Below are positions 14,897 through 49,465 of a stretch of 64,000 bases of DNA, piece by piece (within the stretch, counting starts at the first letter, position 1; each line of letters starts with the position of its first letter). Source of the stretch: an uncultured Clostridia bacterium (lineage in GTDB: Bacteria > Bacillota > Clostridia > TANB77 > CAG-508); the NCBI GenBank assembly GCA_947631915.1, contig CANRNC010000008.1, positions 3,305 through 67,304 of the forward strand, in the 5' to 3' direction. The position numbers were made by a program, and so were the translations under genes. The notes below the pieces were generated by a model. It saw only the letters and a list, made by a program, of their open reading frames with translations, searched no databases and had not been told where the DNA came from.

Positions 14897-14976
14897 AATT
14901 TTAATACTAAAGTACATAAAGTCAATGGAAGATTTCTCTTAGACTAGCGAATTAGTCAGCTTTTTTCTTACGGATA
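14897..14976 (-). promoter_or_regulatory. conserved adhesin promoter module: TATCCGTAAG element, N45, CCATTGACTTTAT (-35 TTGACT), 16 nt, TAAAAT
   Basis: Same bipartite architecture upstream of all three giant surface protein genes (see 28592..28670 and 32872..32951). Confidence 0.55.
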
Positions 14977-15137
14977 TTTATGATTTATGTGTTTATTTAT
15001 TGTTGTTTAAATTTTATGTATATTTTTGTATTATTTTGTCGACTTTATTACGGAAATATATTTTTCAAGGCACGTTGATATAAGGAAAAAAATATGACGA
15101 GCAATAATGCTCGTCACTTTATAGGATTTTATGTATT

Positions 15138-15320
15138 TTATTCCTCTTCTGGTGCTCCAACTGGGCAAACAGCTGCACATGTTCCACATGCTATACATAT
15201 ATCCGGATTTATTTCGTATTTACTGTCTCCTTCTTTAATACATTCGCCTTCGCTGTTCATAGGGCATTGTTGTGCACAAAGACCACATTTTACACATTTT
15301 TCTGTTATTTTATATGCCAC
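15138..15320 (-). CDS. fdx: 2x[4Fe-4S] ferredoxin
   Basis: 60 aa, CVKCGLCAQQCP and CIACGTCAAVCP. Confidence 0.8.
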   Translation of the reverse strand: MAYKITEKCVKCGLCAQQCPMNSEGECIKEGDSKYEINPDICIACGTCAAVCPVGAPEEE

Positions 15321-15353
15321 CTTAATACACCTCCCTTCGCTTATATCATTTTA

Positions 15354-16262
15354 TTATTCCTCTTGCGAATTATGTATCTCTATTTCGTCTAGTTTTTCTA
15401 TCTTTTTTAGTTCTTCATCATCGTCTTCATTATTTGTGTTCTTATCTACGTCTTTTATTATTTTTATATCTTTTAATTCATATTTTTTATGGAATTCATT
15501 TCCTTCTTTATCTTTTATTTTGACTTTTACAATTTCTTTTAATATTTCTAAACCTTCAACTTCTCCTTGTCCTTCTGGTGTGTTTACTATAGCTCCAACT
15601 CCTGGAAGTCTAGCATTTTTTTCTTCATATACTTCTTCTTCGTATTTTAAACAACACATTAATCTTCCACAACATCCAGATATTTTTGATGGTGTAAGTG
15701 ATAAATTTTGTTCTTTTGCCATTTTTATTGATACTATGTCGAAATCTCCCAAGTAAGAACAGCAACAAAATTCTCTACCACAAATTCCATTTCCTCCAAT
15801 TCTTCTTACTTCGTCTCTTAAACCTATTTGTCTCAATTCTATTCTTGTTTTAAAGATTGCTGCTAAATCCTTTACTAACTCTCTAAAGTCTATTCTTCCT
15901 TCTGCAGTGAAATAAAATAATATTTTACTATTATCAAATTGATATTGCACATCAACTAAATTCATAGCTAATTTATGTTTTTTTATATTTTCTTGGGCAA
16001 TTCCAAATGCTTCCTTTTCTTTCTTCTTGTTTTGTTCATTTTGTTGTTTATCTTTTTTATTAGCAACTCTTATAATGTCTTTTAATGGTGCAACTATTTT
16101 TTCCTCTGATATTTCTTTGTTGCCCATAACTACTTCTGCATATTCTTGTCCAAAAGTTGTTTCGACAATAACAAAATCGCCCTTATTTATTTGTTTATTT
16201 CCTGGATTGAAATAATATATTTTTCCTGGTCTCCTTAATCTGACTCCTATTACTGTTTTCAT
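15354..16262 (-). CDS. ricT: stage 0 sporulation/competence regulator RicT (YaaT, PSP1 C-terminal domain)
   Basis: Cys-rich GICGREFCCCSYL...GCCGRLMCCLKYE core typical of YaaT/PSP1. Confidence 0.8.
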   Translation of the reverse strand: MKTVIGVRLRRPGKIYYFNPGNKQINKGDFVIVETTFGQEYAEVVMGNKEISEEKIVAPLKDIIRVANKKDKQQNEQNKKKEKEAFGIAQENIKKHKLAMNLVDVQYQFDNSKILFYFTAEGRIDFRELVKDLAAIFKTRIELRQIGLRDEVRRIGGNGICGREFCCCSYLGDFDIVSIKMAKEQNLSLTPSKISGCCGRLMCCLKYEEEVYEEKNARLPGVGAIVNTPEGQGEVEGLEILKEIVKVKIKDKEGNEFHKKYELKDIKIIKDVDKNTNNEDDDEELKKIEKLDEIEIHNSQEE

Positions 16263-16289
16263 CTATATATTCTTCCTTTCTAGATGGAT

Positions 16290-17082
16290 TTATTTCCATA
16301 TATTTAATAGCAAATTATCAATACACATGTTGTAGTTAGCATTTGCTTGTAATCTTCTTTTTGTTTCTTCTACATATTCTATATAATTAATATTTCTTTT
16401 ATCTTTTGCTATATTATTATATAATATTATATTTATATAGTCTAACATCATAGAAATGTTTTTTTCGCCTTTATATAATATATCTATCTTGTTTAGTACA
16501 TCTAATAAAGAAAATTTTTCAATATGTGCAAATACCTTTTCTAATTCAAAATATATTTCTTTTTGTTCATCTGTCATAGTTTCTTTTGATTCTTCTGTGA
16601 AAACTATTTTTGTACATCTAGATTTTATTGTATTTAATATATCATTTTCATTTTCTACTAGCAAGATTATAGTTATATATTCTGGTGGTTCCTCTAAAGT
16701 TTTTAATAAACAATTTTGTGCTCCGAATTGTCATTTTATCACTATCTTTTATTATATATACTTTTCTTTCTGATATTATTGGTTTTTTTATAATATCATT
16801 TTGTAAATTTCTTATTTGTTCTATTTTTATATTGTTTTCATCATCTTCAAGTTGTATTTTTACGAAATCAGGATGATTTTCATTGTTTATTTCTACACAT
16901 GATTTACATTTTTCACATGGTGTATTTTCTTTATCAAAGCATAATATTTCCTTTGCGTATTTAGTTGCAATTTTTTCTTTTTGAGTTAGTTTACTTCCTA
17001 TAAACATATAACTGTGCAATATAGAGTTCCTTTGTATTGTTTTTTTTAGTAATTCTTCTATTTCGTGATTGTTCATAAACAA
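16290..17082 (-). CDS. holB: DNA polymerase III delta-prime subunit HolB, reading frame interrupted by a single-base indel
   Basis: ORFs 16648..17082 and 16290..16664 are the N- and C-halves. Deleting one C in attCGGagc (+ strand ~16725) gives ...DKMTIGAQNCLLKTLEEPPEYITIILLVENEN..., the canonical clamp-loader motif. Confidence 0.75.
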
Positions 17083-47600: not shown

Positions 47601-47615
47601 TTTTATCTCACCTCA

Positions 47616-48296
47616 TTATTTTAAATTTTTCCTTCTTTGAAGAATGATAATAGTTAATATTATGCACATTACTGTAAATGTAACTAATGCTACTGTCTCT
47701 TCAATAGGAATAATTCCATCTACAAACTTTTCATATAAATTCATAAAAGATATTGTTGAAAAAATATCTGATAAATTTGAAATATACATTGATCCAAAGA
47801 AAAATACAAATGTAATTATGTAAGCAATAATTGGTTGATCTGTTATACTAGAGGCTAATTCTCCAAAAGATATATATGCCATTGTTAATAATATAAATCC
47901 TAATAGAGTAGTGCCTAATGTTGATGCATCTGGAGTTCCAAAGTGGCTTATTATTGCTAAATATACACAAGAAAATATTTCTGTAATTATAACTACTACC
48001 ATTGCTGCAAAAAATTTTCCTAATACTATTGAGGTTATACTTTTAGGAGATGTCATTATTAGTTGATCTGTTCCATTTTTTCTTTCTCCCGCAAACATAT
48101 TCATTGTTAATATTGCTATTATAAATGTTAAAATAACTGCACTATCATAAAATATATACGAGAAATTTAAACTTCCTGAATAATATGTATAAATATAAAA
48201 TATTAGACTAGATACTTCCAAAAATAATCCTATAAAAACATATCCTATTGGAGTTAAAAAGTATGTCTTTAATTCTTTTTTTAATACGGATAACAT
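47616..48296 (-). CDS. ABC-2 family permease
   Basis: 226 aa, 6 TM, immediately downstream of the ATPase (1-nt gap). Confidence 0.7.
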   Translation of the reverse strand: MLSVLKKELKTYFLTPIGYVFIGLFLEVSSLIFYIYTYYSGSLNFSYIFYDSAVILTFIIAILTMNMFAGERKNGTDQLIMTSPKSITSIVLGKFFAAMVVVIITEIFSCVYLAIISHFGTPDASTLGTTLLGFILLTMAYISFGELASSITDQPIIAYIITFVFFFGSMYISNLSDIFSTISFMNLYEKFVDGIIPIEETVALVTFTVMCIILTIIILQRRKNLK

Positions 48297-48297
48297 C

Positions 48298-49365
48298 TTA
48301 TTTTTTACCTCCTTCTTCGTCTTGTTTTTCTATTATTTTTTTATCACTTTTTGTTTTTATTTCTTTTATAACTTCTTGTTTGTCTTCGTTTAATTTATTC
48401 TTCTTATTGCTTTTATCATCATCTTCTTTACTGTAATTATTTATTAATTGTAAGAAGGCATCTTCTAATGTTGCTTCTGTTTTCTTTAATTCTAATATAG
48501 TTATTTCATTCTTTGCAAAAGTTTCAGAAATTTCTTTTCTTATATCTTTATCATCTTTAGCAAATATTGTATATTGCTTTGTGCCATCTGAATTCTCACT
48601 TATTAGTTTTATATCTTTTATATTATCTATTTTATTTACTACTTCGTTTATATTGTCTTTAGTGTCTTCTACTGTTACTGTTAATATATTTTTATTGCTT
48701 ACTTTGTCCTCTAGGTTTTTAGGTGTATCAATAGCTAAAATGTTGCCTTTATCTATTATTATGACTTTCTCACATATTTGGCTTACTTCTGACAAAATAT
48801 GTGAACTTAACAATACTGTATGATTCTTTCTTAATGATTTTATTAGATCCCTAATTTGTTTTACTTGTTGAGGATCAAGCCCTACTGTTGGTTCATCTAA
48901 TATAAGTACTTTAGGATTTCCAACAAGTGCTCCAGCCATACTTACACGCTGTTTGTAACCTCTTGATAAATGTCTATTTAATGTGTTTTGAACATCTGTT
49001 AATCCTGTCTCTTTAATTACCTTCTGTACCTCTTCTTTTTTGTGTTCTCTTTTAACTCCTTTTAAATCTGCCATATAATTAACAAATTCTTTGACTGTTA
49101 AATCATTATAAATAGGAACTCCCTCTGGCATGTATCCAATTTGCTTTTTGGCTTTTTTAGGCTTTTTATTCATATCATAGCCGTCAATTTCTATCCTTCC
49201 TTGTGTAGGTTCAATATATCCTGTTATCATATTCATAGTTGTTGTTTTGCCCGCACCATTTTTGCCAAGAAAGCCCACAATCTCTCCTTCTTCAATATCA
49301 AAGCTAATATTTTCTACTGCTACGAAGTTACCATATTTTTTTGTAACGTTTTCTACTTTAATCAA
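48298..49365 (-). CDS. ABC transporter ATP-binding protein with a K/E-rich C-terminal tail
   Basis: GKNGAGKTT Walker A, LSRGYKQRV signature, ILDEPT Walker B. Confidence 0.85.
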   Translation of the reverse strand: MIKVENVTKKYGNFVAVENISFDIEEGEIVGFLGKNGAGKTTTMNMITGYIEPTQGRIEIDGYDMNKKPKKAKKQIGYMPEGVPIYNDLTVKEFVNYMADLKGVKREHKKEEVQKVIKETGLTDVQNTLNRHLSRGYKQRVSMAGALVGNPKVLILDEPTVGLDPQQVKQIRDLIKSLRKNHTVLLSSHILSEVSQICEKVIIIDKGNILAIDTPKNLEDKVSNKNILTVTVEDTKDNINEVVNKIDNIKDIKLISENSDGTKQYTIFAKDDKDIRKEISETFAKNEITILELKKTEATLEDAFLQLINNYSKEDDDKSNKKNKLNEDKQEVIKEIKTKSDKKIIEKQDEEGGKK

Positions 49366-49455
49366 CTTTGTTTCCTCCTATAAATTTGATATTAAAATAT
49401 TATCATTTTTATATTGCTTTTTGCAATACATTTCACGAAAAATTTACAGTTTTTC

Positions 49456-49465
49456 CTTACGGATA
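49456..49465 (-). promoter_or_regulatory. TATCCGTAAG element upstream of the ABC-2/GldG operon
   Basis: Fourth exact copy of the 10-mer, same orientation relative to the downstream gene, about 90 nt from the start codon. Confidence 0.45.

Follow-up and report, generated by a model that had tools for sequence, protein, structure and literature searches.

In order to establish whether the giant surface-adhesin genes of one uncultured gut Clostridia lineage share a regulatory site, and whether this site also couples them to an exporter, as an original prediction made from the DNA letters had proposed, we examined a 64-kb stretch of DNA from this lineage (the window; 28% GC) in which the 10-mer TATCCGTAAG precedes three adhesin genes and one ABC-2/GldG-type operon. 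In the degenerate form T[A/T]TCCGTA[A/G][A/G], this word would be a putative protein-binding cis-regulatory site, located at a fixed distance upstream of the sigma-A-type promoters of the giant adhesins of the lineage; we give this reading an even chance of being correct. The link to the exporter proved weak, and the near match at the por operon is probably accidental.

A 10-mer at a fixed distance from the adhesin promoters

Four exact copies of TATCCGTAAG were found in the window, all on the minus strand (14967-14976, 28661-28670, 32942-32951 and 49456-49465), and all four were intergenic and sense-oriented. The first three precede the adhesin genes 1, 2 and 3, the fourth the ABC operon. By chance, 0.03 copies are expected, fewer than the 0.1 or so first claimed, and a count of four was reached in 0 of 100 dinucleotide-preserving shuffles of the window. 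The copies start 122, 143, 134 and 100 nucleotides (nt) before the minus-strand start codons at 14854, 28527, 32817 and 49365, respectively, within the range of 90-150 nt that had been announced.

At the adhesin genes, the 10-mer is followed by the 13-mer CCATTGACTTTAT, which occurs three times in the window (14916-14928, 28610-28622 and 32891-32903). Measured by script, exactly 38 nt separate the two blocks at each of the three genes, and 41 nt separate the 10-mer from the TTGACT hexamer contained in CCATTGACTTTAT; the 42-47 nt of the original prediction has to be replaced by these values. The identical -35 context described there was recovered at the three genes, and so was the -10 hexamer placed after a 16-nt spacer, TAAAAT for genes 1 and 2 and TAAGAT for gene 3. 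The core promoters are located at 14898-14928 (gene 1, with TTGACT at 14920-14925 and TAAAAT at 14898-14903), 28592-28622 (gene 2) and 32873-32903 (gene 3), all on the minus strand.

The number of copies is not distinctive in itself, since 1661 canonical 10-mers reach at least four copies in the window, nearly all of them purine-rich coding repeats. What sets TATCCGTAAG apart is the CG within it, its purely intergenic location, its sense orientation and its fixed spacing to a promoter. The excess is confined to the exact word: there were three non-exact matches at up to one mismatch for about 2.4 expected, and 43 matches at up to two mismatches for 44 expected.

The inner hexamer TCCGTA displayed the strongest intergenic bias among 872 comparable 6-mers of the window. 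Ten of its 17 occurrences are intergenic, as against 15.5% of the bases (6 of 13 when the four exact 10-mer copies are excluded), and in related loci the figure was 13/28 as against 18.6% of the bases. In about 220 kb of the lineage that was read, the degenerate word T[A/T]TCCGTA[A/G][A/G] was encountered almost only at the sites described here. In addition, a search in either orientation at up to two mismatches detected a second, degenerate copy at 7 of 13 promoters, always 80-138 nt upstream of the primary site and never downstream, for a chance expectation of about 0.1-0.2 per promoter. Gene 1 provides an example, with TTTCCGTAAT at 15047-15056 on the minus strand, 80 nt upstream of its exact copy. 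Both the intergenic bias and the second copy were post hoc findings and are suggestive only.

Independence of the adhesin copies

Gene 1 (8277-14854, minus strand) codes for a giant adhesin of the SpaA/Cna_B type of more than 2000 amino acids. It carries two frameshifts within its first ~230 codons, in the glycine-rich N-terminal part (window 14250-14600), the first of which recurs in a second, independent assembly of the same strain, made at low coverage (L021; L numbers designate the loci retrieved). A holB-like gene for the DNA polymerase III delta' subunit is likewise split into two open reading frames (ORFs; 16290-17082). The two broken genes are either pseudogenes or systematic assembly errors.

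Genes 2 (24427-28527) and 3 (29104-32817) code for TED/SpaA/DUF11(CLIPPER) proteins that are 63% identical over their N-terminal ~450 amino acids and near-identical over their C-terminal ~400 amino acids, and the DNA upstream of the two genes can be aligned over about 400 nt. Genes 2 and 3 are tandem paralogs. Because their upstream regions are homologous as well, their two motif copies count as one evolutionary event. The module is present at all three adhesins, as claimed, but the tandem duplication had been counted twice.

At the C-termini of the three adhesins (8277-8400, 24427-24540 and 29104-29220), an xIKTG motif is followed by a hydrophobic segment and then by a basic tail. Such an ending is a variant resembling a sortase signal rather than the canonical LPXTG, and no sortase gene was seen in the window.

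The comparison of gene 1 with genes 2 and 3 is of a different nature. Apart from TATCCGTAAG and CCATTGACTTTAT, the upstream regions do not align, and in the 38-nt spacer only 16 of 38 positions are identical, which was judged close to the background for A-rich DNA. Over the two blocks, 23 bases out of 23 are shared, at equal spacing. Since two perfect blocks are held at the same distance within otherwise unrelated sequences, this pattern argues for selection acting on TATCCGTAAG, on CCATTGACTTTAT and on the spacing between them.

These data bear directly on the possibility that the word has no dedicated function, the adhesin copies being remnants of common ancestry or gene conversion and the ABC copy a chance or hitch-hiking match. 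The tandem duplication of genes 2 and 3 is in line with it, as is the chance frequency of the variants with one or two mismatches. However, neither neutral decay nor a conversion tract would leave the gene 1 pattern, namely two perfect blocks around an unrelated spacer, and we consider this explanation improbable. Further evidence on both sides came from the related loci.

Conservation of the module in related loci

A protein search revealed that the close relatives of this lineage are metagenome-derived or represented by metagenome-assembled genomes (MAGs). When one genome per species was scanned for TATCCGTAAG-N38-CCATTGAC, 10 loci were obtained, for about 17 chance matches as estimated by hand. 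Only one of them was a related locus, in a Clostridia MAG from rabbit gut (L005), the other nine being in line with chance, and a stricter module pattern gave no match in the metagenome scan. L005 contains an ortholog of genes 2/3 preceded by the whole intact module, with TATCCGTAAG and the 38-nt gap.

More distant orthologs of genes 2/3 were retrieved by protein search. In L018, TTTCCGTAAA is followed by a 39-nt gap and then by GCATTGACTTTAT; in L019/L020, TATCCGTAGG is followed by a 39-nt gap and then by CCATTGACTTTAT. The gene 2 core promoter is kept in L005, L018 and L019. Across species, the TCCGTA core is thus invariant in the gene 2/3 family and the gap stays at 38-39 nt, so that the comparison of orthologous adhesin promoters, proposed at the outset as a check, came out in favor of the module. 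Neighboring segments are far less constrained: the distance from the -10 hexamer to the ATG ranges from 43 to 86 nt in the five loci measured, and that from the distal promoter described below to the motif from 151 to 182 nt.

Concerning the absence of any dedicated function, it must be noted that the close orthologs are only moderately diverged, so that the conservation of 10 nt is by itself weak evidence. But a spacing of 38-39 nt held across species while the adjacent segments vary by tens of nucleotides speaks against it, and so does a third adhesin family that carries the core at the same distance from the -10 hexamer.

This third family, of the leucine-rich repeat (LRR)/SpaA/CLIPPER type (up to 2635 amino acids), was found downstream of the ABC operon in the relatives L025 and L017. 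Its promoters bear TTCCGTAGA or TTCCGCAAA 62 nt before the -10 hexamer, compared to 63-64 nt in the other two families. In L025 (14751-14840) and in L017 (14513-14606), GTTCCGTAGA and TTTCCGCAAA, respectively, lie 39 nt before a TTGAAA-17-TATAAT promoter. The same motif therefore recurs in three non-homologous adhesin families: gene 1, genes 2/3 with L005, L018 and L019, and the LRR family of L025 and L017.

For gene 1, a distant homolog with 45% amino-acid identity was found on a metagenomic contig of the Joint Genome Institute (JGI contig Ga0137297_10046; L024), where TTTCCGTATA is located 126 nt before the ATG, compared to 122 nt in the window. When the reconstructed N-terminus of gene 1 was used as a query, no homologs were obtained, probably because glycine-rich low-complexity words saturated the candidates. 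An exact-protein look-up with the neighboring ferredoxin returned the same strain only. In the loci fetched, the motif was not found at other surface-protein genes, namely the Big_14 genes, a GBS104-like gene and a 600-amino-acid ORF of L016.

The neighborhood of the L024 homolog (7420-8730) comprises genes for a topoisomerase, an M23 peptidase, a GH25-LysM protein and a sortase, and resembles a conjugative element. Three TCCGTA-containing motif copies are distributed over both intergenic regions bordering the M23 peptidase gene, and TCCGTA occurs five times in 21 kb for 1.3 expected.

Additional elements upstream of genes 2 and 3

Phylogenetic footprinting of the gene 2/3 upstream region, based on five distinct sequences, delineated a constant order of elements. 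A distal promoter-like element, TGTTGCAAAA-N-TAGTATAAT, is followed by about 100 nt that are variable and contain insertions and deletions. Then comes the conserved block AAAATGT(T/A)ATACAAATGT(A/T)AT(A/G)TTA and a T-tract (28671-28690 for gene 2, 32952-32970 for gene 3) ending directly at the 10-mer. The variable gap of 38-39 nt leads to the proximal promoter, which is conserved, and the region closes with a leader of variable sequence and the ribosome-binding site. In the window, the distal element reads TTGCAA-17-TATAAT; it is conserved and is located at 28853-28881 for gene 2, 182 nt upstream of the 10-mer, with a paralogous copy at 33115-33143 for gene 3 (minus strand in both cases).

The WalR consensus, TGTWAH-N5-TGTWAH, is matched perfectly within the conserved block, and the Wal regulon of C. 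difficile takes in surface proteins (PMC9210968 for both the consensus and the regulon). In the five homologs, substitutions affect only the degenerate W positions. The candidate boxes, TGTTATACAAATGTAAT at 28700-28716 (gene 2, within the A-tract/hairpin/T-tract segment) and TGTTATACAAATGTTAT at 32980-32996 (the paralogous copy of gene 3), both on the minus strand, begin 45-46 nt before the start of the 10-mer in this family (46 nt at gene 2). Two of the three perfect WalR-type boxes of the window lie upstream of genes 2/3. Among the motif-bearing genes, such a perfect direct repeat was found at genes 2/3 only, and it is an element separate from the 10-mer.

At the RNA level, the block can pair, together with the A- and T-tracts on its flanks, to form a nested hairpin, but a weak one (-8 to -14 kcal/mol, z-scores of -1.1 to -2.7). 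A consensus fold of the homologs contained no compensatory changes, and some substitutions break pairs. The structure differs from an intrinsic terminator by its A-U-rich stem and its loop of 36-40 nt, and a terminator scan remained silent, although a T-tract is present. A search of the whole window against Rfam 15 returned only tRNAs at the gathering threshold, and nothing credible was obtained for either of the two adhesin upstream regions at E<=10. The A-tract, hairpin and T-tract come 150-180 nt after the distal promoter-like element; taken together, these parts might constitute a gene for a small RNA, or else an attenuator in the leader of the adhesin genes. A small ORF (MLYKCNI..IVLFSFIRK*) that ends exactly at the motif in three of five homologs was also considered; it is broken in L018 and in gene 3, lacks a ribosome-binding site, and was rejected.

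The word could also act as RNA. It would then be read as UAUCCGUAAG within a transcribed 5' leader, next to a hairpin and a U-tract, and would serve in attenuation, in antitermination (by an ops/LoaP-like recruitment), in processing or as the 3' end of a small RNA. Transcription would start from the distal TTGCAA-17-TATAAT at genes 2/3, and from an ATCACA-17-TATAAT located 18 nt before the TCCGTAAG of the ABC copy. The sense orientation of every copy would suit such a role. At genes 2/3, the motif directly follows the conserved A-tract/hairpin/T-tract segment, and the distal promoter upstream of both is conserved to the same degree as the proximal one. In four ABC loci, a conserved TATAAT or CATAAT precedes TCCGTAAG by 17-18 nt. 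Processive antitermination typically serves giant genes, which the size of the adhesin genes would fit.

Several observations run counter to this explanation. The promoters of gene 1 and of the LRR family carry the motif without a hairpin, a T-tract or a convincing upstream promoter; the hairpin is weak and its pairs are broken rather than compensated; from the distal promoter to the hairpin, the leader shows little conservation and many insertions and deletions; and no Rfam family matches even at the relaxed threshold. The constrained quantity is the distance to the downstream -35 and -10 hexamers, a DNA-level property. A role as RNA is judged rather improbable. The hairpin/WalR-box architecture is specific to the gene 2/3 family and leaves the motif at gene 1 and in the LRR family unexplained.

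The ABC/GldG and por operons

The fourth copy of TATCCGTAAG (49456-49465) precedes an operon coding for an ABC ATPase, an ABC-2 permease and a GldG-like (ABC_transp_aux) protein (46137-49365). A proximal promoter, TTGCAA-18-(TGa)TAATAT, is located 29 nt after the 10-mer (49397-49426, minus strand). To evaluate this copy, eight orthologous loci were compared, the window included. The window, L015 and L016 have the exact word (ATPases 85% and 86% identical in amino acids to that of the window for the latter two), L014 (82%) has TTTCCGTAAG, and L022 (76%) only a degraded form, AATCCCTAAG. In L017 (84%), L025 (85%) and L023 (74%), the 10-mer is absent. The word is thus exact or matched at 9 of 10 positions in four of the eight loci, degraded in one and absent from three, a loss from half of the loci that agrees with the absence of a dedicated function.

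The motif is not a core part of the control region of this operon. A block just upstream of the promoter, TGTAAATTTT.TGTGAAA, is kept in L014-L017 and in L025, and the proximal promoter region is partly diverged in L022 and L023. An 11/12 WalR-type box (TGTAAA-TTTTT-TGTGAA) was observed just upstream of the -35 hexamer in the ABC orthologs. The motif precedes TTGCAA by 29 nt in the window and L015, and by 27 nt in L014, L016 and L022. In the window, the ABC copy lies 53 nt from the -10 hexamer, 10 nt less than the 63 nt of the adhesin genes, a shift compatible with a placement on the same helical face but representing a single datum.

The idea of a regulon joining adhesins and exporter is consequently weak, because the ABC copy is lineage-restricted and is lost without loss of the promoter. 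The adhesin half of the proposal held in the relatives; the exporter half found the word in four of eight loci, at a distance from the promoter (27 or 29 nt) that departs from the adhesin geometry. The ABC copy may have been recruited recently, in a restricted lineage, or it may have arisen by coincidence and survived because divergence is low.

The 9/10 variant TATCCGTAAA at the por operon, proposed as a further member, is indeed located one base after a TTGACA-17-TATACT promoter (5081-5090, plus strand). It has no statistical support, since matches with one mismatch occur at chance level (3 for ~2.4 expected), and it is probably a chance match. A shared site, present at unrelated transcription units and conserved in their orthologs, was found for the adhesins, in part for the ABC operon, and not for por.

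Partner hexamers and inverted partners of the word

The surroundings of the word were inspected for the partners expected of other kinds of element. The first of these would be a promoter for an alternative sigma factor, placed in tandem upstream of the sigma-A one, the word containing either a -10 'CGTA' of the extracytoplasmic function (ECF) or sigma-I type or a sigma-D-like 'CCGATAT'. ECF and sigma-I promoters typically have a -10 element with CGTA in it, and at gene 3 and the window ABC copy a GTTGA or GTTGG lies 15 nt upstream of CGTA. However, the putative -35 is not conserved, as it reads TAGTT at gene 2, L005 and L019, ACACA at gene 1 and GTCTC, with a deletion, in L014. If the word is taken as a -35 instead, no conserved -10-like hexamer is found 17 nt downstream, and there is no TAAA at the sigma-D spacing. 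With no conserved partner hexamer on either side of the word, an alternative-sigma promoter seems very unlikely.

The second would be a recombination site or an invertible phase-variation switch, comparable to that of cwpV in C. difficile or to the surface-gene loci of Mycoplasma. Adhesins are classic phase-variable genes, and imperfect inverted partners do exist 106-107 nt upstream at gene 2 (TTTGCGTAAG), L018 (TTTCCGTAAG) and the window ABC copy (TACCCGTAAG). Yet such partners are absent at gene 3, L005 and the ABC loci L014-L016, the exact copies are all direct and none inverted, no recombinase gene is adjacent in the window, and a single orientation was observed in three independent assemblies of the same strain (L001-L003). 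Unconserved partners, no adjacent recombinase and a single orientation make a switch hardly credible.

Putative role of the site

The site lies 62-64 nt before the -10 hexamer at the SpaA/Cna_B/CLIPPER adhesin promoters, with its center at about -80 as counted from the predicted -10. The predicted span is from about -85 to -76 at the adhesins and from about -75 to -66 at the ABC operon, relative to start sites that are themselves predictions. This predicted center is compatible with an upstream activator site of the class I type, which the original prediction had suggested at about -85.

Under the favored reading, that of a protein-binding cis-regulatory site, a DNA-binding regulator would occupy the word and modulate initiation at the downstream promoter. 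It might contact RNA polymerase from the same helical face, in a class I-like manner. Alternatively, the word might be a distal operator that cooperates with the second, weak copy 80-140 nt further upstream. The predicted position fits the class I geometry, which makes an activator possible; a distal operator with an auxiliary copy is equally possible.

A number of observations weigh against the favored reading. No regulator gene was found near the motif sites, and a full-text literature search for the word returned primers only. The site is asymmetric and single, unlike most sites of dimeric activators. TTGACT-16-TAAAAT agrees with the consensus at 10 of 12 positions, the 16-nt spacer alone being sub-optimal; a core promoter so close to consensus is not typical of activator-dependent promoters, so that an activator is not obviously needed. 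Furthermore, promoter-like hexamers occur at chance density in DNA of this composition (33 found for 29.5 expected), and all transcription start sites are predicted. In the ABC loci devoid of the motif, the proximal promoter persists (TTGCAA or TTGAAA with the extended -10 TGnTAATAT or a close variant). At genes 2/3 and their orthologs, the motif directly adjoins the conserved hairpin/T-tract block, so that its conservation there is inseparable from that of the block. Finally, the findings on the secondary copy and on the third adhesin family were both made post hoc.

A more elaborate version would be a lineage-specific multi-adhesin regulon, through which several unrelated giant SpaA/CLIPPER adhesins would be expressed in a co-ordinated way. 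A single asymmetric site at about -80 would frequently be assisted by an auxiliary copy ~80-140 nt upstream, possibly through looping; a WalR-type box and a small RNA or attenuator would be layered on it in one family, and the ABC-2/GldG operon would have been recruited in some species. We advance this version as a tentative and rather doubtful one.

If the favored reading is true, it offers a handle on the co-ordination of several giant surface adhesins in an uncultured gut Clostridia lineage, and a defined site of 8-10 bp with which the regulator could be fished out and regulon members predicted from metagenomes. The main value of the present analysis is corrective: the adhesins share a genuine, conserved module, their link to the exporter is weak, the por variant amounts to noise and one supposedly independent copy is a tandem duplicate.

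Other features of the window

A hairpin, AAATTCCACAGA...TCTGTGGAATTTTT, occurs twice (33664-33698 and 37137-37171) and brackets a 3.4-kb segment with genes for ORF6N-domain proteins, a radical SAM protein and a nicotinamide mononucleotide (NMN) transporter. Either the two hairpins are terminators that have been reused, or they mark the borders of a segment inserted next to tRNA-Gly/Cys. In addition, the 20-nt palindrome GGGCACATTGCAATGTGCCC occurs twice (within 49575-49636 and at 57743-57762), with the variant GGGCGCATTGCAATGCGCC adjacent at 49575; these palindromes belong either to a family resembling repetitive extragenic palindromic (REP) elements or to a terminator hairpin family. A stretch of about 400 nt without a clear gene at 49890-50295, between a PMT_2 gene and tRNA-Arg, contains AATCCGTAAT on the minus strand; its plus strand carries a possible 85-amino-acid ORF. 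Lastly, TCCGTAATATAAT at a PyrE-like gene (23404) was put aside, as it is conserved in the closest relative only and is not adhesin-related.

Comparison with known systems

The boxes of DnaA, PurR, Zur, cre, Spo0A, ComA and LytTR appear to resemble the word only partially. Among the systems closest to it are the leader attenuators and cyclic di-GMP riboswitches of clostridial adhesin genes, in which, as here, the adhesin gene is preceded by an extended conserved region containing a promoter, a hairpin and a T-tract. In contrast to them, the region studied here has no Rfam match, no conserved aptamer-like structure and no covariation, and the motif also occurs without the hairpin.

The WalR (YycF/VicR) cell-envelope regulon of Firmicutes has a box like that of the gene 2/3 family, but this box is distinct from the 10-mer and absent at gene 1. 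Its distance is atypical for WalR, about -125 from the proximal promoter and about +140 from the distal one, and it is a candidate box by sequence.

The RofA-like/Mga-type and AraC-type (Rns/AggR) regulators of adhesins and pili bind upstream of adhesin promoters, sometimes at two sites. In the same way, the targets here are sortase-type SpaA/Cna_B adhesins, the site is upstream of the -35 hexamer and a weaker second site is often present ~80-140 nt further away. Unlike in these systems, the adhesin genes of the window have no such regulator gene beside them, and to our knowledge the word matches no published box of these regulators.

The class I activator sites of sigma-70/sigma-A promoters, such as those of CRP at -61.5, -71.5 and -82.5, provide the remaining comparison. 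Class I sites are centered near -61.5, -71.5, -82.5 or -92.5 and occupy one helical face with respect to the start site; here the predicted center is at about -80.5, and the ABC copy is one helical turn (10 bp) closer to the -10 hexamer (53 compared to 63 nt). The present site differs from them in being asymmetric and single rather than palindromic, in its near-consensus core promoter and in the 2-nt shift of its spacing among ABC orthologs. It has in common with them a short site, a fixed distance and an unconserved spacer of constrained length. It is standard in bacterial regulation for functionally related promoters to share an upstream operator or activator site, and the concept is not new; the word described here is a new instance, in an uncultured lineage, of this well-known kind of element.

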